DNA of 64,000 nt, from the NCBI GenBank assembly GCA_951406725.2, contig OX597815.1, positions 55,986,001 through 56,050,000 of the forward strand, read 5' to 3'. A program made the translations under genes and the position numbers. Under the pieces are notes generated by a model, which was not told where the DNA came from, searched no databases, and was given only the letters and a program-made list of their open reading frames with translations. Positions 2,440-51,008 of this stretch are shown here, in pieces. Every line of letters starts with the position of its first letter. Within the stretch, counting starts at the first letter, position 1. The stretch comes from Octopus vulgaris. Lineage: Eukaryota.

Positions 2440-5400
2440 AATATAATGAAATTATTGTATGCAGTGCTCAGGTGCACCACAACTTGTCAGTAAGTGCGCA
2501 TAAAGTACATGCAGTAATGTACAAATGTCTGGAAAGTGAACAATGTATGAGTCAGATACATGCTTGTGTGTGTATGGAGGGGAGAAAATCAGGTGTAGTG
2601 TTGGCGAATCTCAGAAAGCATGGAAGTTTTGAAGGATGCAGTGCTCCGACAACTAACAACTGATGCCAGCAGTTTGTTCCATGCTTCAGCAACTCTCAGC
2701 GTGAAAAAATGTTTCCTGAAGTCATGGGAGCTGTGCTGTTTTCTGACTTTGTAAATATGTCCACGGGTGTTAGATGGGTGGAGTTTGAAAAGGTGCTCAG
2801 AGTTATTGTTTGTACGATGGTTGATAATTTTATGGGTGTCTGCCAAGTCAGCTGCCAGACGTCGGAGTTTCAATGTGTCCATGCCCAGGGAAGTAAGGCG
2901 TTCAGAATATGGCAAATGCCTGATGGAGGGTATTCTTTTGGTTGCACGTCGCTGAACGGCTTCCAGACGATTGATATCCTGGGCAAGATAGGGGTTCCAG
3001 ACCGGTGATGCAAATTCCAGGTGAGGTCTTACCATAGCTATATAAAGCCGCAGATAGATAGTTGGAGAGCGGCTCACAAAGGACTTGGTGAGTGATGCCA
3101 AGACACCATCAGCCTTCTTGACAATTTTAGCGATGTGTTTTGTCCAACGCAAATCACTGTCGACAATAACACCCAGGTCACGTTCACATGAAGACTTTTT
3201 GAGACTAGTGTTGTGGAGGGAGTAGGTGGACGCTGGGTTTCTCCTCCCAAAATGCATGGTGGTACATTTGTCCACAGCCAGCTTGAGTTGCCAGTCCATG
3301 ATCCACTGCTGCATTGTGTCCAGGTCTGATTGCAATAGAGATCTATAGTGTACAGGATCTGACCTCTTTATTTCGAGGTACAGCTTGATGTCATCTGCAT
3401 ATTTCAGCACTGTGGCATTCTTTAAGTTGGCATCTATGTCATTAACATATGCAACAAATAAAAGGGGGCCAAGAACAGATCCCTGTGGTACACCAGATGT
3501 CATCTCATAGGGTGAAGAGTGCTGTCCTAGAACTGTGACAACCTCTTTTCGGCCGAAAATAAAGGACTTCAACCAGTTATAGAGTTCGTCTCTTACGCCC
3601 AATGCAGAGAGCTTCACCATAAGTCTTTTGTGTGGCACAGAGTTAAAAGCCTTAGCAAAGTCCAGGTAAACAACATCCACCCAGGATCCGCGATCAGTGA
3701 TTTGGGTAACGTCCTCAAGAAACTCAATGAGTTGATTACAGCAGCTGGAGTTAGGAATAAATCCAAATTGTGACGGCTGGATGAGGCTGTGAGACTTCCA
3801 GAAGTTCCAGAGGGTTTCCTGATACAGGATTCCATCAGTTTGGTGATGCAGCTAGTAAGACTAACGGGGCGATAGTTGACAGGCGATGTGCGGTCACCTT
3901 TTTTGAACAGAGGGATAACACTGGCAGTTTTCCACTGCTCTGGAGTAACACCATTGTCAAGACAGAATTGGAAGAATAGAGAAAGTTGGCTTAGAAGAAA
4001 GTACCCACCGTGTTTGAGAAGTAGGTATGTAACACCATCGAGACCAGGAGAGGCATAGTTGCGTTTATTCTTAAGGTGGTGTTGTAGCATTGCTGGTGTA
4101 AATTGCATAGTAGATATAGAGTCCGATGTCAGTGGTGATGAAGATGGAACATTTTGGTCTTCGACAGTAAAGATGCCAGCATAGCATCCAGCAATGATTT
4201 CTGCACATTCTTTGGGATTGCCAGTAATCTGTCCTGTGTGGGAATTGCGAAGGGGACCAACTGGAGAGTGAGGTCTCTGCTTTGAGTGTACATACTTCCA
4301 GAACACTTTGCTGTCAGGGTTAGTTGCAATGCGTTGTTCAAATTCAAGCACTGCCTTTTTTGTCACCTGCTTGAGGTGGTTGGCTGACCTATTGCGCTTT
4401 TTCCTGTTGCTCTCTGATTTGTGCAATTTGTATTCCTGTTCAGCATTATGGCATTCTTTCCTGGCAAGTTGGACTGCTGCAGTTTCCCAAATTGCACTAT
4501 TGGGTGGTTTTTTGTGCTTGCGTGGTACTGATGCTACACATTGCGTGGTACTGATGCTACATATGCCGCCCATATTGAATTCAGGATGTTCTGGAATATA
4601 GTGTCCATATCTCCAGAGGCATAAAATTCGAGCCAGTTTGGGCGTTGCAGCTCAGTACAATAAGAGCTCCAGTCTGCTTTATTCCAGTCAAAGCAGGGAG
4701 TCTGAAGATGGTTGTGGTTTTTGTTACAACCAATCAGAGACAAGTCGGCCATGATCATGGAATGATCAGAGTCACCTAAAGGTTCTTCAGTAGTGACACT
4801 AATGATTGTTTCAGGAGAAGCGGTAAGTAGTAGATTTAAAGTGTTGTTACCCCTTGTGGGGGAGGTAACGACTTGGGACCAATTTGAATTCAGCACCAGT
4901 TCAAGGAAATCATCTGCACTTTGCGGCCAATGGAAAGCCTCCCAGTCAATCTCAGGGAAATTGAAATCGCCCGCAATATAAACATACGTGGCTGTTTTCA
5001 TAGCAGCAGCTCTGAGGATATCAAAAAGCTGTGCGTCTTGACGATAATTTTTTTTTGGTGGGGGGGCAGTAAACAACTCCAAGCAGAAGTGTTGACATGG
5101 TCATGTGTATATTGCAGAAAAATATTTCCTGCTGAGATTGGTTCAAATCATCACAGGGGATTGCCAATAGATTTGATCGAACATAAATCATCACACCCCC
5201 TCCACAGCAATTAATGCGGTCTTTGCAGAACAGGTTGTAGCCGGCTATGCTGAAAACTCCATCACAGAGTGCAGAATGTGCCCATGTTTCCATGACTGTG
5301 ATGAAATCTGGGTTGATACTTTTGACGTAAGAGTCAAAAAGATGCACCTTTGTTGCATAAATTACAGGAATTCAAGGACAGCAGTTTGTATCTGGATTTC

Positions 5401-6075
5401 AGATGATGATATACAGGGGATGGCTGATTGTTCTTGGTTAGTTTCCCAAGATTTTTGTATTGCCAGTTGTTGTTGTGGGTGCAGTTTGCTCAGTCCAACT
5501 GGTATCCCTTATCCACAACTCACCAGACTTGACAAATTTCCAGATTTGCCCATCATCGCGGAGGCTAAAACTTTCCTGTGCCACAGAGTTGTGATTTAGG
5601 GAAGCTATATATCTTAGCTTTGGGCGTGCATCAGGTGTTAGGCCAGGACATGTCCTAAAGGTGATCCTGTTGTCGCGCCGAGCTCTATCAGCAGCCAGAT
5701 GGAATGCCCGCGCCTCAGTAGTGTTTGTAAACATCAGCCTGATCAGCCTGGGTTTGGATCCTGGTCGGCCTGCAGATCTACCACATCTTCCGGCACTCCA
5801 ATGGCTGTTACTTCATGAGTGAGTGGTTGGTTCAGCAACTCCCTCGATGCGTTGAGGTTCCGTACGAGCTACAGGTAAGTTGCTGAGCAAGGCACTCCGA
5901 TAGGACCCCTCGCTGTGAGTTTTCACACAGACGCTGGTTCTGGTTACTGCTATTTCACGACTCAAAGCAGAAATCATTTGTCTAATTTCTGCAACTTCTG
6001 TGCTGATGGTCGATTTCTGGTTTAGTTGAGAAGTATCAGGAGGGGAGGGCATAGTTGGCTTTTGTTCCTGCTGAT
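2440..6075 (-). mobile_element. Near full-length CR1-clade LINE (ORF1 remnant, APE and RT), frameshifted
   Basis: ORFs 5021-5347 and 4534-5082 carry APE motifs (ETW, GDFN, GDSDH). ORFs 3614-4573 and 2589-3680 carry RT motifs (NYRPVSLTS, YLDFAKAF, GVPQGSVLGP, YADD, DLGV, VRPHLEFA). ORF1-like pieces lie at 5438-6052. The 3' end is shared with the copy at 59024-59735. Confidence 0.93.
2589..5347 (-). pseudogene. CR1 ORF2 (endonuclease-reverse transcriptase) split over four frames
   Basis: Consecutive ORFs 5021-5347, 4534-5082, 3614-4573 and 2589-3680 concatenate to an APE-RT polyprotein. One frameshift coincides with a 23-bp tandem duplication at 4518-4563. Confidence 0.9.
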
Positions 6076-7579: not shown

Positions 7580-8103
7580 AAGGGCGTTAATTTTAATATC
7601 ACCAGCTGCATTTCATCACAGAAATGCCTAACGATTTTTGGAAGCTTTAAATCTTGATGTTAATTTTTCTCTTTAAAAAATAAAAGTTCCGGCAGGTGTA
7701 TACTTCTTGAAAAGTGGAGTTTCATCAACATTGTATACACACTTTAGTATATGGCCACCTTTAGCATTTTTTTTTTCAGCTGCTCAGTATAATTAGTAAC
7801 AGCACTGGCAGCTTCACCTGTCATTTTTATGTCAAACAAATTTAAGCATGTTCTTAAACCTTTCAAGCCAACTCTTACAGTATTTTGTAGCCAGAAAAAG
7901 CTTTCCATTATAAATTTCATCTTTCTTTTTCTGCAAATTATCAGATAAACTTTTGGCACATTATGTTGAATTTTATTCTCAATCCATACACTCAACAGCC
8001 GTTCCATTTTAAGAAGCACATTAGACCTCTGTGAAAATAAGGTTTGGGCAGTTAACAGAATAGTTTCTTGAGACCTTGATTTAATGTTCTCACTATTGTA
8101 CAA
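7580..8103 (-). mobile_element. Tigger/pogo transposase remnant
   Basis: ORF 7744-8103 has CENP-B-type HTH text (KMERLLSVWIE, IKMTGEAASA). The adjacent frame gives VYNVDETPL (first D of the pogo DDE domain) and FKASKNR. Confidence 0.75.
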
Positions 8104-8527
8104 TCATCCTGGTACTATTGTAGTTGTTCTTGGTAGATTATCCAAAAGTTGGTGTGCTGTTAGTGGTGGTAGTGTTGGTTGTATTGGATGTATTTATTGA
8201 TTTGGTGTAGACAGTGAGGGTGATGAGAGTAGTATTGTTTGTGGCAGCAGTGGTCATATTGTTCTTGCTACTTGTATTGTTGTTGCTGTTTAATCTCAGT
8301 TCAATCCTCACTGATCTAATATCAAAGACATTTTATTCAACTTATAAAATACCTTAGGGTACTATATTGTTTCATGTGATTGTCATTTATTTTAGATGAG
8401 TTCTTTATTTAACTTATACTACTGTTGCTGTTGATCATTAAGAAGTTGGTGGGTTGGTAATAGCAGTGGTTGTATTGGTTGTGGTGTTGATGGTGATTGT
8501 GATAGTATTAATGATAGTGACAGGTTT

Positions 8528-10772
8528 AGATAGATAGATAGATAGATAACTTTCTTCATTGGCCACACAGGGCTGGACACAGAGGGGACAATTACAAATG
8601 TATGGCTTTTCTTTTCGGAGATGGAAAAAGAAAAAGAAAAAAAAAAGGAAACAAATGTAAAATTTCGATCAAAAGGGATAGGAAGGAAAAAAAAAAGACG
8701 ATCAAAAGGGATCGTGTATCACGGAAAGAAAAAAAATTTTTTTTTTCAAAGTAACAAGATTAGGTTCATCCGTGGAAAGAAAATCCTACAGAAAAGACCA
8801 CGGTAACCTCAGGCAGGGAGGAAATAGACACTCTCTCTCTCTCTCTTTTACGATTTACAGGATCATGCTCAAAGTGGATTCGTCACTCGCACGCACCATC
8901 TTTGCTACATTCACCCACCTTTTTTTGAAAGTTTCACGAGACAAAACCTGCCTTTCCATTCTCACCTTCCTTTTCAAGTGGTACTTGAAAAAGTTGATGA
9001 GCGATTGGCCAGAGAGGTAAGTGTTTGTCTCTAATCCTTTCGCTCGAGTCCACCACACACATTCTTTCACCATAGCCACCAGTACGATGAAAACTGCCTT
9101 GCCTTCCGGGTTGAGGGAAGGGGGCGATGCAATTTTCAACATCAGGGTCAGGTGTCTCTCGTCGACGCCCAGAGACGTCGTAACACCTCCTCTCCACTAA
9201 TCCTCTATAGAACGCCTTTGTTGTAATGGAGTCGCACAAATTGTAATGGAGTCGCACAAATTTGGTCCCGGACGGCAGAGTTGCTTGAGAGCAACGCGAC
9301 ACTCACGGTGCCATTCGCCTAGCCTCGGTCTCTGTTTGATCCATGACTGCAGTTCGGCCAAGGAGACGAGCTGCGGGAAAGTGCGTCACACAAAAGGCGA
9401 CCACACCTGTTCACCATCGTCTATGAAGTGCCGGAGATGTCGCAGTCTCAGCGCATGTCTGCGCATCATCAACCACGGCATGCCTAGCCCTCCATTTAGC
9501 GGGTGTTGACAGCAAATGGATCGCCTAACCATCGGAACGCTTCTCTTCCACAAGAAGCGGAAGAGTATGCATTCCAGCTTGGTGATGGTAGGGTCGGGAC
9601 AAGGCACGACGGTCAGGCGGTACTCGATGAGGGATGCGATGTACGAGTTCGCCAACTCCGCCCGACCTTTTAGGGATAGCTTCCTCTCAGCCCATTGCTG
9701 GGTGAGAGTGGCCACCCTAGTCGTTATTTCGCCCCAGTTCTTCTCCATTTGAAGGTCTGGACCGAACCAGACTCCGAGCAATTTAACCGGTCCGTCTGTC
9801 CAGTGTCCCACGATGGAGATGCTGTTGGACGGCATGGGCTTGCTTCTCCAGGTGCCGGGCCGCAAGCCCACTGACTTTTCCCGGTAATTTTTGCTCCCGT
9901 TACCGCTTCATATTCTTTTAGTGTCTCGCCGACCAGGTTGATGTGCTTGTGGCTCGACACTATGATGGTGACGTCGTCCGCGTATGCAGACACGCTCCTC
10001 CAGCATCCAAGCTCTCGTGAGATGCCCCTCAGCATCGCCAGTTTCCGCAGTAGTGGTTCAAGAGCCAATACATACAGAAGCAATGAGAGGGGGCATCCTT
10101 GACGAACCGAACGCATGATGTTAAAAGGTCTGGAAAGATGACCATTTATGCGAACTACCGAGCGGATGCCGCTGTATAAGGCAGTGATCTAACCGCGGAA
10201 GATGGGACCAAAACCAGCCGTTTTAAGGACACCCTCCAAGTAGTGATGGTCTACCCTATCGAAGGCTTTTGATTGATCCAAATTGATCAGCGCCCCACCC
10301 ATGCCAGGATCCTTAACTATCTTGTCTATGATGTAGCGCATCAGATGGAGGTTGTCATGGATACTCCTACCCGGCACGGCGCACGTTTGCGCCTTGTCAA
10401 CTAGTTTCTCGATGACAAGCGCCAACCTCTCGGCTAACACCTTGGCCAAATTTTCCAATCTGCGTTGAGCAGAGTGATGGGCCTGAAGTTATCTATGACA
10501 TCCCTCTTGTTTGGATCCTTCTTTAGCAGTGCCACTGCTCCTTGCTTTACAAAGGCGGGGATACTCCCGTTTTGCTGCCAGTTGCAGTAGACAGCTGCCA
10601 AAACACCTCCAAACAAGTCTGGCATATGACAATAAAGTTCGTAGGGCAGACCATCCAGGCCTGGTGACTTGTCTCTCGCGCAGCCTGCCATCGCATCCCG
10701 TACGTCCGCGGCTGTGATGGGTTTTTCACAACACTTCGCCTCTCTTGCTGAGAGCCCCACAATTGAGGCACA
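8528..10772 (-). mobile_element. Tx1-clade LINE, 5'-truncated ORF2 plus 3' end with (TATC)n tail
   Basis: ORF pieces carry KSPGLDGLPYE, NFRPITLLNAD, LDQSKAFDRVDH, SVRQGCPLS, AYADD, KLLGVWFG, LSLKGRA and GGLGMP. The terminus reads TTGTCCCCTCTGTGTCCAGCCCTGTGTGGCCAATGAAGAAAG (8551-8592), followed by (GATA)n on + at 8528-8548. Confidence 0.92.
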
Positions 10773-11580
10773 TTTCGAATCGGCTAGCGTAGCCAAGGGG
10801 ATATCTATCAAACGCTGAAGAATGAATGAAGAGATAATGCTACTGCCCACTTACTTGGGTCGCAGGACCGCAAAAGTGACAGTTGACGAGATCCGGGTTG
10901 GGTATGAGGTAATGTGGTTAGCGGCTGCGGTAGTGTACGACGTGGAGGAAGAAATTTCAATCCTACAAATGAGGAAAAAAGAAGCGGTAAACTGGCGAGG
11001 ACATTCGTAGGAAATGGTCATTCAAGTGGCCAATGAGACCCATTGAAAATTTGCCCGATAGAGTGTTTGTAGGATAGGGTCTAACCATGCAGGTAGCTGT
11101 GGAAGGATGTAGGCCCAGGTGCATCAAATGTGGAGAGAAGGACCACGTCCGTTCCAAATGCACCAGAAAAAAAAAGATGGCGAGGCCCCTCCCCAAAAAG
11201 CTACGAACGAGAAGAACATGACAAAGAAAGCAAATGACAGAGAGGGAAACACAAAAAGGAAAGTCCGAGTAGAAACTAAAGCAGACACGAGTAAAGACAA
11301 CGAAGAAATGGACTTCACCACAGTCACCCACAAAAGACAAAGGATTATTGTTCCCGATTCCTCTCCCCAAGCAAAAAAAAAATCAACAAAAACAACGTTA
11401 GTAAACATACGCAACCAAACTCCCCTATCCAAGCATCATGGCAAAACTATTTGACAAACTTCTCCCTAAATTACATGAAAGAAATGTGATGTTCAATGAA
11501 AATAACGTATCGTTAGCAACACTGATCAGGCACTAACACACGGCAAGAGTTTATAGACAATGTAAAGACACATCAAAAGA
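10773..11580 (+). pseudogene. Tx1-type ORF1 (gag-like, CCHC zinc knuckle) fragment
   Basis: LLPTYLGRRTAKVTV (ORF 10822) matches LLPSYLGKKTTRISV of ORF 13997-14773. VAVEGCRPRCIKCGEKDHVRSKC (~11093-11160) is a CX2CX4HX4C knuckle followed by a charged low-complexity tail. Confidence 0.8.
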
Positions 11581-11587
11581 TGTAAGA

Positions 11588-13250
11588 TTGCTGCCGAAGC
11601 TGGAGAAGTTGGGAGGCAATCCAAATGAAATCGGACGCGATAAGTCGGTCTCTGCTTACGTGGATGACGTCACCTTCATCATGTCCAATGAAGCGCAGCT
11701 ACCTTGTGTAGAAGACGCTATCAAAGGATATGAGGCGGTGGCAGGGGCAAAAGTTAACAAGGACATGTCCATCGGCTTTCGCCTAGGTACCTTGAGGAGC
11801 AAGTCGATATCGTCCAGTGTCGTGGACAGATGGTCCTGTTAAGTTGCTTGGAGTTTGGTTTGGACCGGACTCCCAGACAGAGAAGAATTGGAGCGAGGTG
11901 GCAGACAAGGTATAGGCTCTAGTACGGATTTGGTCCGGAAGGGCTCTGTCCTTGAAAGGAAGGGCGGAGGTGGTACAGGTGTTTATTGCATCTGTCATCA
12001 CCTACTGCCTGACCGTTTTCCCTTGCCCCGATTCATTGTTTAGTAAGTTGGGGCGCCTCTTTTCCGCTTGTTGTGGGAGGAAAGCCACTTGTGAGGCGCT
12101 CCGTTTGTTGCCAGGAACTTCTAAAGGCTTTCTGGCTAATGATGCGCAGCCGTGCGTTGAGGCTGAGGCATCTCTGGCGTTACCTGGAGGGTGATAAAGT
12201 GTGGAATCCACTGGCAGATGAATTCTTTCCGCGACCAGCCTCTTCGGAGCGACTTAAACCCGGTTTCATTAAAAGACGTAATCTGACTGAATGGCATAAG
12301 GAGTGTCGACAGGAACTCTTGCTTATCCACAAGACAGGCAATGCCGGCAGTTGGAATACCTCTTCGGTTTTGTATAGAGGGTTGGTAGAGCATAAAAACG
12401 ATGACACCCTAGGAGGGGCTCTGGGTTTGATGAGAACCAACTTGCCAACCTGTTCAAAAACTTTCGGACCAGGATATTTGGATAATTACAAAAAATCCTT
12501 GACCTGGCAGTGCTACAGGAACGCTTTCCCTATTCGCAATAAGTTATACAGGCTCTGAATGTCAGTGCCAACGATATGTCCAAGATGTGGACTGGACGAT
12601 GAAACCGTCCAGCACGCTTTTGTACATTGTCGTCAGCTGCCAGTCTTGATAATTTACGTCGAACACGTGTTGTCGCATCTGGGAAGAGTACAGGTATCGG
12701 CTGAATCTATAATAAAGATTGTACCGCCAAGTGGACTCTCGAATGAAGGTGAGGTATGTTTTTTTCTGTACAGTTACTGTGCTGAAAGAATGTGCGTGGG
12801 AGACTAGAATGCCAGTACTTGTGACGAGCTAATTCATCTCTGGCCCTGGTTTGCTACAATTCTTCAGATATTATCTGAAAAGCAAGATAGGGCTGGGGAA
12901 GAGAATCCTGTCGCGAAGTGTGTTTGAGGAATGATGGAAGGCTGTGTTAAGAAAGGTGGGTGCAAGTAACCCTACTTAATCTGCATAGGAAAAAAAGGAA
13001 AGGGGTAGTCGCTGGGCCTTTGAGGGAACCGGGCGTAATCCCTTCCCCAAAAGAGAAAAGGCTATAAATGGAAAGTAATCATTTCACAAAAATTTTTAAA
13101 TAAGGATCATTCGAACTCATATTAACGTTTTTGTATATGTTGTCCTGTGCTGTACCATCTATGTGTGACATTTATTGTCTTAACTAGCATTATGACCCGG
13201 CAACGCCGGGTCATAGTGCTAGTTTGGTATAAATTTCTTAAATTAAAAAT
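11588..13250 (+). mobile_element. Tx1-clade LINE, C-terminal half of ORF2 plus 3' UTR (second subfamily)
   Basis: SAYVDDVT, KLLGVWFGP, LSLKGRAEV and the CPRCGLDDETVQHAFVHC zinc finger. The 3' UTR is highly similar to 16222-16560. Confidence 0.9.
13182..13224. repeat. 20-bp-stem hairpin (possible minimal Helitron/Helentron-type end) in the Tx1 3' end
   Basis: AACTAGCATTATGACCCGGC-AAC-GCCGGGTCATAGTGCTAGTT, 19/20 complementary. It is absent from the paralogous 3' end at ~16545-16560. Confidence 0.75.
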
Positions 13251-13355
13251 TTGGGGTAATAAAACATACAATGACATATTAAAAAGACGAATTAAAATTC
13301 CAGAGAAAAATACATAGAAGATAAATATACAAATTTACAAAAATACATAAAAGTT

Positions 13356-13437
13356 CATCTGCGGGCCGTTTCGGAGATGCACCAATTAATATGAAACATA
13401 TCATATATTTAAAATTGACACTCCCCTCGTCAGGATG
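13356..13437 (-). ncRNA. Type I hammerhead ribozyme variant (C instead of U at position 16.1)
   Basis: Minus strand: CAUC-CUGACGA-GGGGAGUGUCAAUU...AAUUGGUGCAUCUCC-GAAA-CG-GCC-CG-CA-GAUG. Stems I, II and III all pair, but the triplet reads GCA rather than GUH. Confidence 0.7.
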
Positions 13438-13458
13438 TTTTTTACACACAACACATCG

Positions 13459-15150
13459 TTTCTTTATTACCCATAAACGGCTACACAGAGGGGACAATAC
13501 AAACATTGGGGACATAAAACATCACAATTACATAAATATGGAAAATGAAATATGAAAATGATAAATGAAAGTGATGCTAACGGTCCCATCCGCTAGCATC
13601 ACTTACCTGTCCTTCATACTTTATCCTGAATGAAATACACATTGTACTCTATTTTCATCGCAAATCTCTTTTCTATTTCCGTTATTATCTCGTCATCTAT
13701 TTCAAATCTAAACACTTTATAGTTTTTCTTTTTACCCACGAATTCTTCTATACATTCTTCCGAGATTACAGCGTACCTATCACTGTCCTTGTCACACCAG
13801 TGATAGTTTTTCAATATTTCTTTTACGTCTTTTTTCGTCGAAATACCTAGAAAATTGGGCCTAGGTTTTTTTTGCGGTATCTTGTATTTTTGCTTTCTTT
13901 TTTGTTTTCTTGTTGGTGGGAAGCAGGTGGGTTCACTGTCTGCAGGGTCTCAGAGGGTGCGGGTGGTGTTGGGGTGGATTGGGGGTTCATCACTATTTAT
14001 TTTTTCCTTCTTCTCTTCCTCCTTCTTCTGCCTTCTTCCCATTCTTTTTGTACATCCTCCTCTTCCGTTGTGTCTTTCTCCGTTGATTTCTGCTCTTCCT
14101 CGTTGGCCTCTACCTCTCTTTGAGGTTCTGCATCAATTTCCTTTGATGGGGGAGGGCAGTTAGCTCTTATGTGACCTTTTAAGCCACACTTGTAGCAGCG
14201 TGGAGCTCTGCCCTCCACCCACACTCTCATAATAACACTTCCCATTCTGATATTCTCAGTCAATTGTTCCAATATTTCAGCCTCTGCTTGCACGTTTAAT
14301 TCCAAAACTGCCTTCCAGCCTTCATCTTTCACTGTAGCATGGAGGATGTCAACTTCTTCCTCACATCCACTGATTACGGTTGCCACTATCCACTCTCCGT
14401 CAACATTAGGAGGCATCCCCTCCACACTGATCCGAGTAGTTTTTTTACCCAGATATGAGGGCAGAAGGAACATCTTTTCTGTCTTCACCGTTCTCGCTGC
14501 CATTTTCCTCGCCACACTTTCATTCTTGAATTGGACCACCACGGTACCGAAATTTATGCCTCTTGCCAAGAATATTATGTCTTCTTCCGTTCTTTTTAAT
14601 GCTTCTTCTATTGTTTCGATACAGACGACTTCTATGTTCTTTTTTACATTGGCATAAACCCGGTACGTGATGGTCCTTCGTTCATGCAACTCTCCTCGTT
14701 TTGGTGGCGGTGACAACTCCACTTCACCGCCGACCTTTTTAATAAATACCTGGTAGCTTGGTAACTTGGCCAAGTCTATTTCTCTTTCCTCCGTTCTTGT
14801 CGCTCCTGCGTATGTGTTGCCTAATTGCTAGTCCATTTTCTTTATCGCCTTTTCAAGTTCTTCTTCAGAAGTCGATAAATCCGACACACTTTCGTACATA
14901 CTTCTTCTGGCCATCTCTCCCTTAGGGAGGGGCAGCCCACTTCTTCCTTGTCTGTCTCAACACAGACAGACAAAAAAACAAAAAGCTGTGTAACAATAAC
15001 GTTTAACGATAAAAATTAACAATCAACAATTAAACAGCAACTCACAGGTTCAAATAAGAAGCACAATAACACACAATACATAGTACACGTAAACAAATGC
15101 ACAATTACATACCTGCTACATGCAAAAGACCAGACTCTCATAGATACTGA
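13459..15150 (-). mobile_element. ORF1-only (HAL1-like) non-autonomous Tx1 derivative
   Basis: Single gag-like ORF1: ATG near 14914, main ORF 13997-14773 with CYKCGLKGHIRANC, C-terminus to 13614. It is followed directly by a 3' UTR ending in the Tx1 terminal motif (13459-13503). No APE or RT sequence is present. Confidence 0.8.
13614..14914 (-). pseudogene. ORF1p-like nucleic-acid-binding protein with CCHC knuckle (frameshifted)
   Basis: ORFs 13997-14773 and 13614-13814 plus upstream MARRSMYESV... and TYAGAT segments. Homologous to 52720-54037 and 10773-11580. Confidence 0.75.
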
Positions 15151-15759
15151 ATGCTACTTTATAAGCATATAATTCAATCTAGCAGCTATAGTAACTGGAC
15201 TAATTCACTTCTGCACTCAATTAAATTTTTCATCTTTTAATTTCTCCCATTCATGCAAAGCCACATATTCGAGTTCAAGTCCTTGATACATTTTATACTA
15301 ATTGCTATTTTTTCTTTTAATTGTTATATTACGATTTAATTACCATTTTAATAAAATAAAATATATTTAATTACTACTTACTATATTTACTATATTTAAT
15401 TCAATTGTTATTATTACCTCTAACTTTTATTGCAATTTTTATTTCTAAATTTCTTATGGAACTTCGAGTGGATCTTATACGTACAATATATTTTTATATG
15501 ATGTTTATATATTTATATATTACTATATATTTCTAAACGTCGGGCTTTATGTCTGTTCTGTAGATATAAATGAATATATGAATATATGTATGTGTTTGAT
15601 CTTTCTGTGGATTTTGTAGTGCTCTTGTAGTTGCTGCTCGCATTGCCTCCCCTCGGATTAAAAAGTGTATACAGCTCATTTGAGCTCTACTATTCCAGTC
15701 TGTTATATATTTTGAGCGTTGTTGTCACTAACGATCTCAAGATATAACTTTATAATTTG

Positions 15760-15800
<41 letters not shown>

Positions 15801-15857
15801 CATATACATATAATAGAGAGAAGTTTTTGTTTCACTTTTAACACGTAAAACTGAAAT

Positions 15858-16560
15858 AGTTAACAAGGACAAGTCCATCGGCTTGCGCCTCGGCACCTGG
15901 AAGAACAAGTCGATATCGCACCTAGAGAAGCAAGTCGATATCGTCCAGTGTCGTGGATTTCTGAACAGATGATCCTGTTAAGCTGCTTGGAGTTTGCTTT
16001 GGACCGGACTCCCATACGGAGAAGAATTGGAGCGAGGTAGCCGACTGGGTAGAGGCTCTAGTACGGACTTGGTCCGGAAGGGCTCTGTCCTTGAAAGGAA
16101 GGGCAGAGGTGGTACAGGTGTTTATTGCATCTGCCATCACCTACTGCCTGACCGTTGTCCCTTGCCCCGATTCGTGGCTAAACAAGTTGGAGCGCCTCTT
16201 TTCAGCTTGTTGTGGAAGGGAGGATATCATCTGAAGAGCAAGATAGGGCTGGAGAAGCGAATCCTGTCGCGAAGTGTGTTTGAGGAAAGATGGAAGGCTG
16301 TGTTAAGAAAGGTGGGTGCTAGTAACCCGACTTAATCTGCGTTTGGAGAAAAAAAAAAGGAAAGGGGTAGCCACTGGGCCTTTTAGGCAATTGAGCATAA
16401 TACCCTCCCCAAAAGGGGAAAAAAGACTATATAATATAAAATTTATCTTTTCATTAAAATTTTTTAATAAGGTTCATTTGAACTCGCATTAACTTCATTT
16501 GTATGTGTTGTCGTGTACTATATCATCTATATGTGACATTATTGTCTTAATTAAAAATTC
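15858..16560 (+). mobile_element. Internally deleted Tx1 ORF2/3' UTR fragment
   Basis: Near-identical to 11752-12080, then jumps at ~16222 to the equivalent of ~12868-13185. Confidence 0.88.
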
Positions 16561-16567
16561 AGTTAGC

Positions 16568-16631
16568 AAGCCATGCTACTCCAGACTGATGATGAGCAAT
16601 CACTCAGAAACTAGTCTCTGAATGCTGGCTT
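16568..16631 (+). ncRNA. Type I hammerhead ribozyme, intact core
   Basis: AAGCCA...CAGA-CUGAUGA(16586-92)-UGAG-CAAUCA-CUCA-GAAA(16607-10)-CUA-GUC(16614-16)-UCUG...UGGCUU. Stems I and II pair perfectly. Stem III is the minimal palindrome ACUAGU, typical of Penelope-associated (dimer-type) hammerheads. Confidence 0.85.
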
Positions 16632-16773
16632 TGGTGGGTGGAGATGCTTATCTCCCTCTTTGTAAACATAAGGACACGGAAAATGCCAACAGGAAGCGAT
16701 GCTTTCTAGGGCTAAATAGCAGTAGTATTATTCCCTTTCATGGGACTGTCGCATTAAGTTGACAACACACCAC

Positions 16774-16863
<90 letters not shown>

Positions 16864-17589
16864 ATGTATGTATGTATGTATGTATGTATGTCGTGATTAT
16901 AGTTTTTCAAATTGTTTATTATATTTTGATACTAGCTAAAATACTGAGAGGTAGCCTTTTTGGCTAAGAAGAAAGTGTAGTATTTAAATTATTAAAATTT
17001 ATCCGAGTTTCCGCAAAACCAAAATTGCAGACTGTATCCCAAAATTTATGGTCATACTTTACAATTTTCGTAAACTTGAAATATCGTAACCTGAGGTAGT
17101 CGTAATGCAGGGGATGTGTGTAAGTCTATTATAGTCCACATAACAACTGGAGCTCGAGATTTCCCATATTTTCATGCCTAGATTAACAAAGATAATAAAT
17201 AGATAACAAAACAATTTGTAAACAAAATTCTAGTTCTGAATATTAGATATTTTAATAGCTTTATTTTATTATTCTAATAAATCGCCTAAACGATAAGAAT
17301 GTTATTGTTTTAACGATATTCTTTCAATGTTTTTTTTTATTTAGTTGTGTTATTCTAACAGCATATAGCATTCTAATATTTTTATTTTCCTGTTTATTTT
17401 CATTTTAAACATTAATTTTATTATAGACATTGTTGATGACATTCTTGTTAAGGTAATGGAAATTAGAAAGATTGTTACTGTTAAACAATACAAAAGCACT
17501 TTGTCATAGCAACTAGCTGATATTCTAAACTGGGCTCAATACTAATAGATTAAGTAATGAAGTTATAACAATAAATAGAGAGAATATTT

Positions 17590-18095
17590 GTACACAATCT
17601 GTTCCGAAGTCCTGTTCGTAAACCAAATTGTTCGTTAAATGAATTATTGAAACAGAGGGTAATCTGTTTCAAGCTACACCCAAACGTCACATAAAGGCAT
17701 GAAATGATGTTTTATTTGTCCACATAGACATAAATGTATGTGCGCGCGTGTATATGTGCGTTTTTCCCTTTGTCCTGTTTTTGTTGATCTAGGGTTGTGG
17801 CTAAAAGCCAAATATATGAGAATATTAATATTAATATAGGAGTGCGTTGTCTACTCATGCGTTGTTCAACTCTCCCAGCACTTATGCGCGTGTCTAATGT
17901 ACTCGTGTTTGTTGCTCAAATTTCATTTCTCTAATTACATGGCCTTCCAGTCAGTTATACGCGTGCGTAATCTGCTCGTTGTTCGTTGATGAAATCTCGG
18001 CTCGATATGTGAGTTTTTTTATTTTCTTCAGAAACTCTGTCTGTTATTCAAACTGTTCGTTTAATGAACCGTTCATATATGGGTACGTCACTGTA
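17590..18095. mobile_element. Possible Tigger-type terminal remnants
   Basis: Repeated TGTTCG...AACC motifs and an end reading ...GTCACTG-TA, reminiscent of pogo/Tigger right termini. Very degenerate. Confidence 0.3.
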
Positions 18096-18379
18096 TAAAT
18101 AATTAATAATATGTATATGTTTATAGGAGAATCAAGATAATCTAGATATATAAAAGACTTAACGCTTCGTTTGTACGATGTAAATTTTAATTAAGGTAAC
18201 ATTTGCCATCGGCCGTATTGAACCTTTATTTGACAGTAATAACTGGTAATCTGGATATTCATATTTTATCCGAAGTTAGTTTGGCATAGGTTAATGAAAT
18301 AGTATAACTGAGACAAGAACTGTCGGTAGATGGTAATGATTGAAATGCAAGTCAAATTCCATCTTTTGAAAACATCCTT

Positions 18380-18960
18380 TCAAACAAAAGGATTTGGGGC
18401 ATGCATTACAGAAAAGGGAAAACAAATGCATTGGAAAATTTTGTTCATGAGTCAGGAGCTTCTCTACAAATCTTACCGAAACAGGTGAAAGGTAAAAAAC
18501 AATTATGTACTTAGGCCTTGTGTTACCCAAAAAGCAATCGGAGATGGCCCGAGCAGATAAATGGAGAAATTTTCATTGAGAGAACATATGATATATATGT
18601 TGTCTTCAAAACCGAGGTTAGGACTAAAACACGAGCTCAGATTGTGCAAGACACGCCTTCCCATAAACTAGTTCCTCAATAAAAATAAGAAACACGAAGG
18701 TCACTTTCAAAATCGTTGGTAACAGTGTCGATACATAGCTCGTGGTCACTTTCGTAACGCGATTAAAGCAGGTTCTCAAAAAAAAAAAAACAACAACAAA
18801 AAAAAACAGAAAAGAAAATTATACAGTGCAAAAAGCATTGCTGGAAGGAAAGGTTGAAGAAAGAAACTGGCCATATAGGAAAAGAATCGTCGATATTGGA
18901 GGAACTCAGTAAAGCAAACATGAGGTAACAAGACAGGAAAGAAAAGTAAAATTGAAATAT
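18380..18960 (+). mobile_element. Old RTE-like LINE 3' fragment
   Basis: Degenerate LLEGKVEERNWP.G (cf. ILEGKVEG.R.RGRP) near 18837-18880. Confidence 0.4.
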
Positions 18961-20929
18961 GGGTTAAAGAAGACAGATTTACAACTTAAATAGAAAATAC
19001 AATCCAAAGCCTGACAAACCTTCATCGTGGTTGAACAACCAATCCCAGCCAGTTAGGTCTCACAGTGCTGGTTGCACTGTTCTTTTCGATCGCTAAGTAC
19101 TAAACGTGGCTCGCAAGACCTCTGTTCGGGTGATTTTTCTGTGTCACCATCTCACCTTTGTACACCAATCCGTCAAAAGATTATCCATTTGCAGCTGAGT
19201 GAACTGGAACAACGTAAAATTAAGTGTTTTGCACAACGCACCACCCGGTTAGGAATTGAAATCACGATCTTGCGATCGTCACTCTAATGTATAAGAAAGT
19301 TTGTACAAAAGAAACAAATTTTTCAAGTAAAACAAAGTAAGTGAAACGGATGTTAAACGGTTTTACCGAGAAATAGGAGTAGAGCAAGCAACAGTTGATA
19401 AAACACCAACAATTGAGCAAGTTGATCAATTCTGGAGTGACGTCTGGAGTAGTCAAATCGATCTCAGTGAAAAGGCTGAATGGATACATAATATACAATA
19501 CAAAACCAATGAAAAACATGATTGGCAGAATCATTAGTGTATTGAAACGTAAAGTTGTGTTACTAAATATTCTATGATATTTAGTTATTGCCCTTTACAT
19601 TCTGAATTCAAATCCCACTGGTGTCAACTTCGCCTTTCGTTCTTCCCTGATCGATAACTCATGTACTGGGGTCAATTTAGTTTAATTTCCGATCTTTCCC
19701 TATGTTAGAATCAATTATTATCGTTATTGTTACTGTTGTTATTGTCGATGTTGTTCAGGGTTGTGGACTGGCACAATATCGAGAACAGTATAAAATGCTT
19801 GACAGTAATTAGTTACGGTTCTTTATTCTAACTTCAAATCCAGCCGTGGTCAACTTTGCCTTTTATCCCTCTGTGGTCGATTTCTCCCCCAAGTTAAACA
19901 GTTGTTGTTGTAAGTCGTGGTGATGGTGATGGTGGAGTAGGAGTAATGGTGATTATCGGAGTAACGAAACCTGTTTCTTCTCGTGAATCGAAAGCTTGTG
20001 GATTTAACCAATATGAACAAAGAAATTTTTCAAAATTTCCGACTATTTTTCATGCAAGAGATATCCTGGAACAATAGACTTGATTCACACTGGAATAAAC
20101 ACTGTAAAATGTGGTGGGGGGGAGCACTTTGTGAGTTTCTCTTCAGAAATGCATAAAAATAGCGTCAACAATAATAAATGGGAATGACCCCCATCAAAAA
20201 CAAAAATAATAGCTTTCAACAAACGAATATTTTTAACAACAAAAAAATTAATAAAAACCACTTTATTATCACAAGACATATACAAAGAGAAAAGTATTGA
20301 CATAATGGAACCAAAAAGTTACTTTATTGACAGCAACGAATACGCGCGCGCACATTATCGAGTAAAAGCACTAATATTTCATTTTCTAACGTTGATAGCA
20401 ACATTCGAAAACAAAACATAAGTGAACTAGCGAAGGGAAGATTACTATGACACATTTGTGTGAGAAGAAAGGTACCATCATACATGAGCATGTTACTTAA
20501 GAATGATAAAGAAGTAGAACACTACCAATCGGATCTCCGGAGTCACAGGAGAGTATACTGTAGAGTATACTGTCCTCAATACCAGAAGCTGATCATGTGA
20601 TAATGATAGAAAAGAAAAAGACGAAAGAGGAAATTCATCCACAGCAGTATCATGTGTGAGATATTCTTCACATATGTCAAGGCTTGGATTCTATCTTCGG
20701 TCGTTTTTAATGAACAATGCCAACTTTGAGCTAATCGAAGACATGCATGGAGCAGGTGAAGTTGCCATTCTGATCTTTTTTTCTTTTTTTTTTTTTGTCT
20801 GAATAGAATGTCGTGCCAATTAGACACACAGGAAAAGATATGAAAACATTAAAAATTACTGGCCCGTTTGTGAACTCAGGAGAATTTTCTCGATGATGAT
20901 GGACAAATTTGACTGCTGTTTCTAAGAAA

Positions 20930-22000
20930 AGGTAAGATGAGTCCTGAGTCAATGCTAAACATGAAGGTTGCATTGTTAGAACTAAGATGCGTACTCCAAG
21001 ACAAGCGGGAACGAAAGCTGCTCGATGGACCCGAGTGGAAGAGGCACAACGTAGCAACAAAGCCACAATTCGGTCTTTCGTGGACCAAAATGGGTGCATA
21101 GTACTCGAGCCCGAGCACATGTATGCAGCATTTCAACAACACTCCGCCCAACCGTTTGGGCTGCGACATCTCCAGTATTTTCTAGACGGTGAACAGGTGT
21201 GGTCGTCGTTTGTCAAACACGATTTTCCACAGCTCGTCTCTTTGTCAGAGCTGCAATCCTGGATCAAGAGTAGGCCGAGGCAGAGCACCTGACACCTGTC
21301 GTCTGGCACTCACAGTCCTCTGTCAGTCGGGCAATGTGGTCACTGGAAGTTCCACTCAGGCATTCTATGGAAGGTTTGTGACAACGTTCTTGGGGAAACT
21401 TGGCGTCGATGAGAATAAGTTGGCTGGTCTGTTATGAAGGACCTTCGGGCCGGGGCCTATGGATAACTTCCAGAAATCTCTGGCCTGGCAGAGGCTACTA
21501 GCGGGCGTTGCTGTTTCGGGGTAAACTCTACAGGCATGGAAGTGCCGTCAGCCGGGCTTGCCCGAAGTGCGCGCAGAGCGACGAAACTGTTCTGCACGTC
21601 CTCGTCCAATGCCTAAACATTGCTGACTTGTAAAGTTTATGTTGAACACCTGATGTCGCGTGTAGGACGGATCCGGCTATCAGCTGAGACCATCGTGACG
21701 ATCACCCCGCCGCTTTCCTTTGGCAGGGAAAGACAAGCAGATTTTCTTTGTCTGATGGCCTTAGCGAAAGAGGTTGTGTGGTAAACCAGGTTAAAAGGGC
21801 TGAAGTCAGGCACTTTCCTCTCTGGCCAAGCCCTCGTAAACTTTTCCAAAGATGGGTGAATGTAGATCGAGAGTAGATGAAGTGGAGAAGGCACTTTCCT
21901 TAGAGGTCAGGGCGATCGTAGTTTCTGTGGAGTTTCCACGAGCAGCCTTTAGAAGCCTCCATCTTTTGGGGATTTATTTGTTGTAATTTTTTATCTTTAT
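20930..22000 (+). mobile_element. Tx1 ORF2 fragment with the RT domain deleted
   Basis: Linker text (EAQRSNKATIRSFVDQNG...AAFQQH) joins directly at ~21160 to post-RT text (LRHLQYFLDGEQVWSSFV), followed by CPKCAQSDETVLHVLVQC. Confidence 0.8.
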
Positions 22001-22099
22001 TCTCTTTTTACACGATTCAATCCCACTCTATATGTATTATAATGTCCTATATCATTTCCAATCTATTATATGAATCCTCAGTGGTTTATAAAGAAAGGA

Positions 22100-22120
22100 T
22101 TATTATTATTATTATTATTA

Positions 22121-22172
<52 letters not shown>

Positions 22173-22197
22173 CATCATCATTATCATTATTATTATC

Positions 22198-22251
<54 letters not shown>

Positions 22252-22399
22252 CAGTAGTCTTATTTTTATAACGTGCTTTCACTGCACTACCGAACGCAGC
22301 TCGGTGTGCCTTGGGTATGTACTGTGGTTTGCTGTGATGCTCTTATGATTACTGTATTGAAAATGTTTTACGTAGGATGTGTGCGGTGCATAGTAGTGC

Positions 22400-22450
<51 letters not shown>

Positions 22451-22452
22451 CA
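22100..22452. repeat. (ATT/ATC)n trinucleotide microsatellites
   Basis: Directly visible runs at 22100-22250 and 22400-22452. Confidence 0.95.
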
Positions 22453-22455
22453 TTA

Positions 22456-22670
22456 AGGCAGCGAGCTGGCAGAACCGTTAGCTCGCCGGGCAAAAATCTT
22501 AGTAGCATTTCGTCTATCTTTATGTTCTGAGTTTAAACGGCGCCAAGGTCGACTTTGCCTTTCATCCTTTTGGGGTCGATAAAATAAGTAGCATTTTATC
22601 ACTGGGGTCGATGCAATCGATTTGCCTCCAACCATCAAAATTTCTGACCTTGTGCCAATATTAGAATTAT
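22456..22670 (+). mobile_element. SINE (family GGCAGCGAGCTGGCAGAA...CTTTGCCTTTCATCCTTTCGGGGTCGATAAAATAAGTA)
   Basis: The same core recurs, degraded, at ~19600-19900, 24010-24135, 24500-24700 and several times in 42000-42720. Confidence 0.75.
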
Positions 22671-23249
22671 TATTTTTGTATCTGCAAGGGCAAAACGTCG
22701 TTTTAGAACTCGTTAGTTGTTAATAATTTTGTTGTTTTGAAGAAAGTTATTTTGGCTTTTATTGTACCATTTTGTTGTTAAGCCAGCATCTCCTGAGGCT
22801 AATTGGCTTTGTGAATCTTTCACTCCTTCTGGGCGGATATCTTATTTATTTTGCAACATATATCTGTTTTTTGAAAAATAACATGAAATCATGGTGTCGG
22901 ATTTTTTGGCAAAAGTCAGAGTAATGGTATTAGAGATTGGGAGAGTTGTTTTGACGCTGTCTTCCCATTTTAAAACCTTTGCCACTTCCACTTCCACCAT
23001 CACTGCCAACCGAAACAACAACGACAGCAGCAATAACAACAACAGCAGTAACACCAGCAACAACAACAACAAGGCAAATGAACACAACAACTTTAACAAT
23101 GAAAATGAAAACAACAAAAACGAAAACTGAACAGAAGAACAAAAAAAATCAAATTTAAATTGCCCTTCCAACACACTTGTACAGTCCATCTCCGCTACCG
23201 CCACTTTTAACGCCAGCGCTAAAACATAAAGACACAAGAACTTGCAAAT

Positions 23250-23963
23250 CTAGCGTTGGTGGGTTCGCTGACGCCATCATTCAGACAAAGAAATTATTTT
23301 ATCGTCGAAAAAATTAAAATATACGCGAACCTTACTTTTGAGGTCTGGATGAAATATTGTGCCAAACATATGAAATTCATCCGACAAGAAACCAGCCTCG
23401 GAAGTGAGGTATACAACTGCGATAGCAAAAAGAAGAAAAAAAAAGAAATAGGGAAATAAAGCCTCAAACCAATCTAGATCACCAACATATACGTCATCAA
23501 GGGGAAAATTACTGCACAATATAGAAGAGAATCTCTACAGATGTGACAAGAAAGCATTCCACAACAAAGGAGTGACGAACTGGTTCTCATATCCATCTAC
23601 CTTGACTGTAGGGTAGTAAAAATAAAGACAGTCAGCGAGCCGCCAGAAAAAAAAGAAACATCTACTTGTTAACGGTAGCTGTCCTCGAACAAAACTAGTA
23701 TTCTGCAAGCCCAAATGCAGTAGAAGTAAAATTGGTCGAACCAAGAGATGGAGCTATTAATCCAAACGGATTACCAGAGCATCGAAGTCATCACGGATTT
23801 AATCAATCTGCCAGACAACACAAAATTACTTGTAGCCATTGAGGGCAGAGAACTAAGATGTCGCTTGTGCAGTGAAATAAACCTTACCAAGACTTCCCTG
23901 TCCGTAGCAAACAAGGAAAGAAGAAATACTTCCACTTCCGCCGACTTCACAACACAACAGTAG
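23250..23963 (+). pseudogene. Highly decayed fourth copy of the Tx1-type ORF1
   Basis: ORF 23748: LPDNTKLLVAIEGRELRCRLC matches FPDETRLRVVVDGRPPVCYKC (53309) and RVWVEGRAPRCYKC (14220). Confidence 0.55.
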
Positions 23964-24169
23964 CAGCACCAACAGCAACGTGTAGTTATAAGAGCAATAG
24001 TGGTAGCAGCTGCAGTCAACTTTGCTTTTCATCCTTTCGGGGTGGGTAAAACAAGTACTAGCTGAGCACCGGGGCCAATGTAATTGACTTACTCCCTCCC
24101 CGCAAAATCCTAAATGTTGTGTCAAAATTTGAAACCATTGTTGTTGCTGCTGTTGTTGTTGTGCTGATG

Positions 24170-24475
24170 GTTTGTTTGTTCCTTCTCGAGCCATGTCTGG
24201 CTCATAGGGCCGGTTTCCCGGTTTCCTTGATATATAGGTTCCCCACTTGGACGGGACGCCGGTCCGTCGCAGGTGAGCTGCAAGATGCAGGAGGAAAGAG
24301 TGAGAGAAAGTTGTGGCGAAAGAGTTAGCAGAAGTTCGCCATAACCTTCTGTCGGAGCCGCGTGGAGCTTAGGTGTTTCGCTCATAAACACACACATCGC
24401 CCGGTCTGAGATTCAAACCCGCGATCTCTCGACCGCGAGTACGCTGCTCTAACCACTAGGCCCTGTGCTCCACTG
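24170..24475 (-). mobile_element. tRNA-derived SINE, young copy
   Basis: Minus-strand head GGCCTAGTGGTTAGAGCAGCG...GGTTTGAATCTC carries Pol III A and B boxes. CpG-rich. Confidence 0.75.
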
Positions 24476-25596
24476 TGCTGGTGGTAGTGATGGATAATTA
24501 ACGGGATTGTTAGTGTATTGAACAAAATGCTGGGCAACATTTCTTCCAACTCATTACGTTCAAATCCGGCAGAGGTCAATATTGCCATTTATCCTTCCTG
24601 GTAGATAAAAATAAAGCACCACTCAAGTACTAGGTCGATATAATCGACTTTCCCTTCTCCTCTCAGAATTGCTGGCCTTGAGTTAAAATTAGAAAGATTT
24701 ATACAAGGATAGTGGTCAGGAACATTGAGGTCATCAATATAGATGGATAGGTGTCCATGTTGCATCGGGGTCACCATTATAGAAGGATATGTTTTCCACG
24801 TCAAGATGACCATTATAGAAGAATAGTCTGTGCATCACGTCGGGGTTAACATTATAGACGGATAGGTTGTGGTTCTATCTAATGTGACTCTACTCAGAAG
24901 ACTGTAATATCATTTGACAGTGTAAGAAATATGAACGCGCGTGGTCGCATTGTGTAGGGAATACGATCGCACGTGGTCATATTCTTAACGAATTATTATA
25001 AGCCATAAATACAATGCAGTACCAAAAGAACATAGGTGAATTGACGACAAAGCCGTTCCACTGTTTGAGAGAAGATAAGATTTTATTTACAATTGGTGTT
25101 AAGGTTAGAAGGTTGTGAGTGCTAGCAAGTACGTGTGTGCATGCAACACGTGTTTGTGTCTGTGTGTTCGTGTGTGTGACAGATACAATAAGGGTGAAAG
25201 CGTGTGACATAGTAGGTACAGAGCATAGAGTTAATGATGGAAATTCATTTACTGTTCATGAGGTACACGAAGTGTAAGCGTTCAATATCAAGATGTTGTG
25301 TCTCGGAGCTGAGATTAGTTGAATCACTTGTGCTTATCTTTCTCTTGATATAGATATTCTTTCAGATATATATACTGCAACTGTTTTTCCGTGGTGAGAT
25401 TTTCACACTAACAGCATGAGTTGAATCTGTATTTATCTTGTCGTGTACAAGTTGAATCTTCGTAGATGGAGACGATGTTGGTACAATGATGGTGACGACG
25501 GCGGCGGAGATAGAAATTGGTTTTCTGTTGCGGGTGTACATTAGCGTCGTCGTGGCTGATCGTCTGTCGCTGTGACTGGAACATGTTGAGTAGCTC

Positions 25597-33894: not shown

Positions 33895-35538
<1,644 letters not shown>

Positions 35539-44633: not shown

Positions 44634-45363
44634 TAAATTCTCTTCGAAGCTAGGAGCTTTCCTTAATCTTAACACAGTTGTTTTTATCCACTACGATGGT
44701 AACTCGAGTCATCAGCGTACTCTGTTATCGATCGATACTCGTAGGCAGTTCTCAATGAAAAGATGAATGGAAAAATTTTTAAAGTGACGTGTGTACAGAG
44801 CTGGAAGTAGTTGTTTGCGTATATTGTAAATAACATTCATATATTATAAATATTGTCGGTATAAACCATAAAAATTTTAAGATTCGTTAATTAAAAATAA
44901 ATATTCATCCGGAAATATTAAGGAAGAATTGTTTACAGACGTTTGTATGATTTAAAATCTGCGTACTTCATATCCAGCTGGTCTGTGATAATAAATAACA
45001 CAAATTACTTTCCGTCTCTCTGTCTTCAACACCGATTCGTAAAACTTTTCCGTAATCTTAACCTTTCTTCTGTTTTCACACACAATATTATAAACAATAT
45101 CTCAGATACAATGATAAATACATTTGTCTCGCTTATACTTATTTAAGTACGAACGTAAAGCGCGTAAAATAACTGAAGTTAACGTAGATACGCTTACACA
45201 AATATAAATATACTGTAACACACATGAACAGTATATGTAAAATAATATAGAAGACACAAAAATACACACACACATACACATGTATACACGCAAGATTAAA
45301 ATCACATAGAACTAGTTTTAAAATAAACTTTACGTTTTACAAAATAGTTACGAATAGACATAC

Positions 45364-45577
45364 CAGTAGCAGTTATGGGTACTGGTTCACATGTATCAGA
45401 ACCAAAAAATGTTGTTTCCGATGATGTAGTGACGGGTGTATTAAGAGAATCATCCATAGTTTCAGGTGGTATTCGTCCGATGTTACTCAAAGTAGTTGGA
45501 GACGAGTGAAAGTTATCAAAGCTGAGCTGATCAGCAAGAGCGACCTGCGTTAGTGTATCCAGGCCTTCCATAATCAT
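45364..45577 (-). CDS. EGR1: EGR family transcription factor, exon 1
   Basis: MIMEGLDTLTQVALADQ...PVPITAT plus 1 nt, then donor G|GTATGT at 45363. Phase 1 joins exon 2 in frame (G+CA = Ala, then NIEASIT), giving 1809 nt = 602 aa plus stop. It lies just downstream of a TATA/CArG promoter. Confidence 0.88.
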
Positions 45578-45744
45578 ACCGGTTGAGGTAATAACCTTAG
45601 CTGTGTATACAGTGAAGAAAATCTCGGTTTAACTCACAAGCTTTTGCCACGACTCAATAAACTTAGCTTGCCAGCGTTTTTCTACACATCATATCATAAC
45701 GTGACTCTCAAGATCTATTGGCAAAATCTATGAATGAAAAGTTC

Positions 45745-50958: not shown

Positions 50959-50960
50959 AA

Positions 50961-51008
<48 letters not shown>

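Follow-up and report, generated by a model that had tools for sequence, protein, structure and literature searches.

A Tx1-linked, apparently ORF1-only retroposon lineage of octopods, represented by two decayed copies in Octopus vulgaris

Two elements, A and B, in the 64,000-nt stretch of Octopus vulgaris DNA analysed here (the window) are probably dead copies of an octopod lineage of ORF1-only non-LTR retroposons, derived from Tx1-like LINEs and moved in trans by Tx1 ORF2p. The part assigned to Tx1 ORF2p is suggested by a common 3' tail; both elements encode an ORF1 protein, lack any recognisable ORF2 and are bounded by target site duplications (TSDs). Their features are as follows.

13460-15068, minus strand: element A, full-length ORF1-only retroposon of 1609 bp, delimited by its TSD and an empty-site joint
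15069-15084, minus strand: 5' TSD copy of A, 16 bp, 14/16 identical to 13444-13459
13444-13459, minus strand: 3' TSD copy of A; the offset of 1625 equals the bases skipped at the empty site
14915-15068, minus strand: 5' UTR of A, T/G-rich, 154 nt, a putative internal promoter
13577-14914, minus strand: ORF1 of A, broken, with two RRM-like domains, a CCHC knuckle, a charged linker and a C-terminal part
14153-14200, minus strand: CCHC zinc knuckle of A (PF00098, E 8.6e-4, 19.7 bits against a cut-off of 20.8)
13460-13576, minus strand: 3' UTR of A, 117 nt, with three TTTCAT units and no poly(A) tail
52613-54227, plus strand: element B, full-length ORF1-only retroposon of 1615 bp, more decayed than A
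52599-52612, plus strand: 5' TSD copy of B, 14 bp, 13/14 identical to 54228-54241
54228-54241, plus strand: 3' TSD copy of B
52710-54084, plus strand: ORF1 of B, interrupted by several stops and frameshifts
53777-53932, plus strand: family C-terminal domain of B (C-terminal profile, E 0.003)
54085-54227, plus strand: 3' UTR of B, 143 nt, TTTCAT-rich, aligning with the A UTR along its whole length

A and B each inserted as a unit with TSDs and defined ends, the mark of retrotransposition, and their TSD matches (14/16 for A, 13/14 for B) were equalled in 0 of 2000 shuffles, those for A being of a 400-nt search region. In contigs from four public sequencing runs, aligned to positions 8400-15400 of the window, 13452 is also joined directly to 15078 and the 1625 bases between are skipped; this joint recurs in all four runs, with one contig each and 34-58 letters on the short side. 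Since the skipped length equals the element plus one TSD copy, A is a 1609-bp insertion at 13460-15068. An earlier note on this DNA had placed A at 13459-15150 and B at ~52600-54226; it had both loci and the strand of A right, but the TSD and empty site bring the 5' end of A to 15068, and the TSD sets the ends of B at 52613 and 54227. The empty-site contig stands at 1-2x single-copy depth, and the site could be allelic or else belong to a paralogue of the repeat that hosts A. At several ORF1 positions private to A, none of the aligned DNA contigs carries the window's letter, and the adjacent unique DNA matches exactly; A may be a presence/absence insertion polymorphism, though contigs cannot prove absence. 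B sits midway in a 491-bp MITE-like element (52329-54448) with 157-bp TIRs that are 94% complementary, between (TA)n runs. This placement of A and B in or beside other repeats, B inside a TIR element, recalls Xenopus Tx1, which inserts into Tx1D (PMC4494074); the targets of A and B differ, however, and so point to no specific target sequence. Close to A, a palindrome with 20-bp arms and a 3-nt loop (13182-13224) marks the border of a repeat of very high copy number. Loose ends at 13183 occur in some 200 contigs in two runs, and the palindrome could be a Helitron- or MITE-type end.

The initial description of A and B as devoid of APE and RT is borne out: an ORF2 profile run over all frames of both gave E values of at least 1.6, against 1e-99 for the neighbouring Tx1 control, and a tblastn search of both for an APE/RT remnant with 120 ORF2 queries reached a best E of only 0.019. 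What they do encode is a LINE ORF1 protein, to judge from the knuckle, a tandem-RRM fold and profile matches upstream of ORF2. The Pfam zf-CCHC model matches A at E 9e-4 and B at E 1e-3, both slightly under the gathering score. The structure model of ORF1 A has a mean pLDDT of 83, and its best PDB matches are tandem RRMs, headed by IMP3 RRM12 (E 6e-5; whole-chain TM only 0.25-0.35). ORF1 profile matches lie upstream of ORF2 on the same strand at 26 of 80 autonomous L1/Tx1-group loci, many of the matches being to the knuckle only.

ORF1 of A opens with an ATG at 14914, meets an in-frame TAG at codon 29 (14830-14828) and changes frame near 13997, near 13866 and probably near 13640. The stop letter at 14830 is missing from all aligned depth in all four runs (5, 6, 5 and 1 contigs), and the stop is thus private to copy A. 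Past the knuckle the protein runs on for ~190 codons, through a charged linker and a C-terminal part and across the frameshifts; the earlier picture of a CCHC ORF1 leading straight into the 3' UTR was right about an ORF1-only element and wrong in ending the frame just after the knuckle. The last stop is at 13616-13614 or, after one more frame change, at 13579-13577. We favour the later end because loose ends at 13614, which occur in three of the four runs (4, 3 and 4 contigs) and point upstream, are read as an open, diverged continuation into the last frame; they may come from a sister subfamily in which this end of ORF1 has diverged.

As the query of a word-indexed search, ORF1 A found a single match, an Octopus sinensis protein 61% identical to it. 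Among homologues that could be assigned to a named organism (10 of 19 looked up), all ten came from octopods: O. bimaculoides, O. sinensis, O. vulgaris and Argonauta hians. Among 50%-identity representatives, a profile search matched 749 proteins with E <= 1e-3, of which 173 reached E <= 1e-10. The matches include unrelated poly-knuckle proteins; five such proteins among the 150 matches listed were dropped, and a tree was built from the 55 of the remaining 145 that had near-full cores. A scan of JGI metagenomes with ORF1 A produced 150 pattern matches and no relatives, and one with the ORF2 alignment produced 80 distant loci with best segments at 25-42% identity, none close to the Tx1-like element at 8551. 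One O. vulgaris homologue, P0007, bears the NCBI name 'EPM2A-interacting 1-like', apparently a mislabel.

The putative helper family is represented in the window by a Tx1-like neighbour.

8551-10754, minus strand: Tx1-like element, 5'-truncated and frameshifted, comprising the 3' part of ORF2 and a 304-nt 3' UTR; a copy of the putative helper family
13459-13504, minus strand: terminal ~46 nt common to A and the Tx1-like element, a putative ORF2p recognition tail

The 8551 element is 60-70% identical to residues 201-912 of P0156, whose relatives are APE+RVT_1+zf-RVT proteins of ~1150 aa (PF03372+PF00078+PF13966). The label Tx1-like rests on architecture rather than on an RT tree, namely an ORF2 with APE, RT and a C-terminal zinc finger together with an RRM/CCHC ORF1, and beside this on motifs that we take to be those of Tx1. 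An ORF1 with RRM and zf-CCHC domains has been described as consistent with Tx1 (PMC5203782). The pairing of this ORF1 type with this ORF2 type has circumstantial backing from a 6898-nt ENA contig: the ORF1 homologue P0276 and the Tx1 ORF2 homologue P0167 both come from a contig of that length, probably the same one. P0276 was also the one match in a search for ORF1-ORF2 fusions among longer proteins, a weak test in which 8000 candidates were scored, and it contained ORF1 only. The fetched ORF1 homologues gave 0 matches to the RT regions of the window, which is uninformative since ORF2 is a separate frame. The 861-aa ORF1 homologue P0154 (noted together with P0149) lies on a contig of 6159 nt, long enough to hold a complete ORF2; P0075 (603 aa) and P0011 come from contigs of 2209 nt and 1703 nt, sizes that would fit ORF1-only transcripts.

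The end of A agrees with that of the Tx1-like element in 39 of 48 columns (score 54, against 28 for the next site in the window), and a score of 52 compares with 24-33 in 20 shuffled windows, which upholds the proposal that A terminates as the Tx1 at 8551-8598 does. The match reaches ~35 nt upstream of an AATAAA-like word and contains a 16-nt exact core. When the end of B is the query, the Tx1 end is the best non-self match (28 against 23 for the next; pairwise p 0.0005), as expected if B carried a diverged version of the same terminus; with the end of A as query, B scores 25 and ranks under three chance sites (26-28), and the ranking thus fails in the reverse direction. The terminal match of B therefore appears weak and real only in a position-specific sense. 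None of the A, B and 8551 ends carries a poly(A) tail. The 304-nt Tx1 UTR contains 0 TTCAT words, against 3 in A and 5 in B, and only the last ~46 nt are common with the helper. A putative 3' hairpin was rejected as evidence: it stands in the same register in A, B and Tx1, yet is no stabler than in shuffles (z -0.72 to +0.27). Rfam gave 0 matches over 8000-25000.

Other ORF1 relics and Tx1-like fragments lie nearby.

10756-11454, plus strand: ORF1 relic C, head-to-head with the Tx1 5' end (10754); an RT fragment starts at 11588, ~134 nt on
23460-23900, plus strand: ORF1 relic F, a distant homologue matched by 26 family proteins (best E 1e-12)
11588-13186 and 15855-16553 (D), plus strand: second Tx1-like family, distinct in its 3' end, with two copies 83-89% identical; D has an internal deletion of ~790 nt
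20950-22099, plus strand: third Tx1-like fragment (E), with an ORF2 deletion that joins P0156 residue 178 to 636

C/D-type Tx1 ends do not carry the A-type tail (A-D p 0.23). Relic C is as distant from A (dN 0.61) as B is (0.59). It is fused head-to-head with the 8551 element without a spacer, as a 5' inversion by twin priming would leave it, but a search of 10700-13460 for a TSD partner found none for C plus the 8551 element, and there was none for C plus the RT fragment. Whether C arose by such an inversion or by internal deletion, it is probably the ORF1 of an autonomous element. Because it stands beside ORF2 fragments, this ORF1 family also has ORF2-linked members. The earlier note had listed two more ORF1 relics, at 10773 and 23250: the homology of both is real, that of the second at 23460-23900 instead, but ORF2 fragments adjoin the first, and no 3' terminus was seen at the second. 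The window also holds, on the minus strand, exons of a triple C2H2 zinc-finger gene (Pfam C2H2; 33895-35538 and ~45300-45630), presumably of EGR type by its finger sequence, and LINE fragments of other clades at 2438-5800, 49200-51000, 55700-57500 and 60400-62500, 86-92% identical between copies, which we take from their motifs to be CR1/L2-like and RTE-like.

The ORF1s of A and B are, as first claimed, related yet strongly diverged, with 38% identity over 136 aa (E 5e-26) and no blastn match at E 1e-5. Over 130 codons, identity by codon position is 0.55/0.62/0.39, with dN 0.59 and dN/dS ~0.25 on a saturated dS of 2.39. These values support divergence under purifying selection, part of which may date from autonomous ancestors. 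The proposal that ORF1 was kept under selection agrees with the ratio and with relatives that lack the stop of A, though the selection may precede the loss of ORF2.

It is quite possible that A and B were born independently from two autonomous Tx1 families, a variant compatible with the same way of life for both. In the ORF1 tree, A clusters with P0001 (100/99), B has a weak link to P0010 (96/58) and C falls elsewhere (98/80); A, B, C and F lie on separate branches, and the unsupported backbone neither joins nor separates A and B. Separate births would also agree with the 5' UTRs, which are not alike (p 0.33), with a family C-terminal profile that finds B (E 0.003) and misses A and C, and with the history of HAL1, which arose several times independently in mammals (PMC5753468). 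Against them stand lengths only 6 bp apart and ORF1s that both apparently end near Gly-Trp, with TTTCAT repeats beginning within 10 nt. The proximal 3' UTRs of A and B moreover align (score 45, p 0.0065, in low-complexity sequence) and both carry an ATGT(A)CCCCA motif, whereas the Tx1 UTR has no TTCAT. The equal length and common UTR mildly favour one origin.

That A and B instead arose as single events, by internal deletion of autonomous Tx1 elements, and never spread as ORF1-only masters seems improbable. Such deletions are common here, with D (15855-16553) and E (20950-21850) both skipping parts of ORF2, and the junction from relic C to RT is covered by single-copy-depth contigs only. For A, however, at least one listed contig (X3 record 16, ~83% identical) spans 13529-13872, that is, the end of ORF1 plus UTR, across the same junction. 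At 13584, which adjoins the last stop, a letter other than that of the window is common to 41, 41, 40 and 12 contigs in the four runs, which puts 40-41 contigs per DNA run at the ORF1 end. In these limited data, which concern A alone, A members share one ORF1-to-3'UTR junction. The contig evidence covers relatives at 80% identity or more, among 24 of 6914 loose ends and 15 of 709 joints that were listed, and ORF2-linked close relatives of A may be found among the unlisted ones. One-off deletion also fits poorly with two elements whose ORF1s are 38% identical and which have the same length and UTR layout, and with a UTR in A and B that is no simple cut-down of the 8551 UTR. Summed contig depth over A exceeds the single-copy level (45-51 in X3) by a factor of tens to more than 1000, grows toward the 3' end of A and is far higher on Tx1 ORF2; it gives no copy number and cannot rank parts, and is taken here only as 'multi-copy'. 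The idea of an old, diversified 'half-Tx1' family is consistent with this multi-copy family behind A, though the relics need not belong to it as ORF1-only members. A variant of the A family with an internal deletion is represented by one contig of run X3, in which 8 letters foreign to the window separate 13615 from 14286. ORF1-covering contigs in run X12, which is only guessed to be RNA, were not counted as transcription.

We give little credence to a tail that is merely a generic polyadenylation-type end, or to retrocopies of a domesticated ORF1 gene (L1TD1-/ZCCHC3-like), without specific tail recognition: element E does finish in a ATAAAGAAAG-like word, followed by an (ATT)n run, the hairpin is not significant and the Atlas has a ZCCHC3 RNA-binding-domain cluster at 0.90, but the ~35-nt match upstream of the AATAAA-like word, with its exact core, is absent from C/D-type ends, and the ORF1 radiation (173 clusters at 50% identity, E <= 1e-10) is broad, unlike a single host gene.

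On the reading that we prefer, an ORF1-only lineage mobilised in trans, a Tx1-like LINE would have lost ORF2 and most of its 3' UTR. A master copy would be transcribed from its own 5' UTR and make an ORF1p with two RRMs and a knuckle, which would coat the RNA that encodes it. A Tx1 family, for example that of the 8551 element, would then supply an ORF2p (APE+RT) that binds the common 3' ~46 nt, and the RNA would be inserted by target-primed reverse transcription, with staggered nicks giving rise to the TSD.

Elements of this kind are best filed as working like HAL1 or HeT-A, in a Tx1-linked variant, and not as HAL1 in the strict sense. The parent of HAL1 is mammalian L1, whose ORF1p is of the coiled-coil/RRM/CTD type, whereas the parent of A and B is Tx1-like and their ORF1p is of another, RRM-RRM-CCHC type. 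A mammalian L1 origin, the strict hallmark of HAL1, does not apply here, as the homologues assigned to an organism are octopod and the ORF1 has a CCHC knuckle. HAL1 resembles A and B in being an ORF1p-only LINE derivative (PMC5753468) that is flanked by TSDs and needs ORF2p in trans (for A and B, by inference). Mammalian L1 recognises poly(A) (PMC3747384), whereas A and B have a specific ~46-nt tail in common with the helper and no poly(A). Drosophila HeT-A is likewise Gag/ORF1-only, without pol, under negative selection and divided into several subfamilies (PMC5537684); it is, however, targeted to telomeres and has a long 3' UTR, whereas A and B are interspersed, with TSDs and UTRs of 117-143 nt. 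A 2018 review (Kojima; PMC5786205) names HeT-A (Jockey), HAL1 (L1) and Ag-Sponge (CR1) as ORF1-present non-autonomous LINEs; Ag-Sponge, from Anopheles, is bipartite and belongs to another clade and host. The SINEU family of crocodilian SINEs is also non-autonomous and discussed with Tx1-clade LINEs, and common 3' tails of SINE and partner are a general rule (PMC4494074); SINEUs have snRNA heads and code for no protein, whereas A and B code for ORF1. Autonomous octopus Tx1 LINEs share ORF1 type, 3' terminus and TSDs with A and B, which differ in having no ORF2.

For O. vulgaris, 80 L1-Tx1 consensus families have been reported (PMC13282606). The accessible text and supplement of that study mention neither ORF1 nor HAL1, and its curated repeat library could contain elements like A and B; the accessible main texts of PMC9115989 and PMC10294476 do not describe such elements. 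A literature search that took in few subscription journals and no Repbase Reports likewise returned, in the text accessible, no report of a Tx1-derived or molluscan ORF1-only family. The strategy of A and B is thus known from mammals and insects, and its Tx1-linked molluscan case is seemingly undescribed; since the ORF1-only way of life is already known, the surprise is only moderate.

A bolder and rather doubtful extension is that the octopod ORF1 radiation, with its 173 clusters from three Octopus species and Argonauta, goes back for the most part to a single ancient and independent ORF1-only lineage. It would predate the split between Octopus and Argonauta, comprise many subfamilies and have remained mobile by retaining a short Tx1 tail or exchanging it for another, as SINEs do, with its own protein kept; a stringent Tx1 LINE would then have a parasite that codes for protein.

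RT-based surveys of LINEs in cephalopods miss elements of the A/B type, and database entries for their ORF1s pass as octopus genes, either 'uncharacterized' or wrongly named. A Tx1-derived case in a mollusc would add a fourth clade to Jockey, L1 and CR1, with a specific common tail in place of poly(A). Together with their helper, A and B would form a natural pair in which to ask why a parasite keeps ORF1 and whether Tx1 ORF2p recognises RNA stringently.
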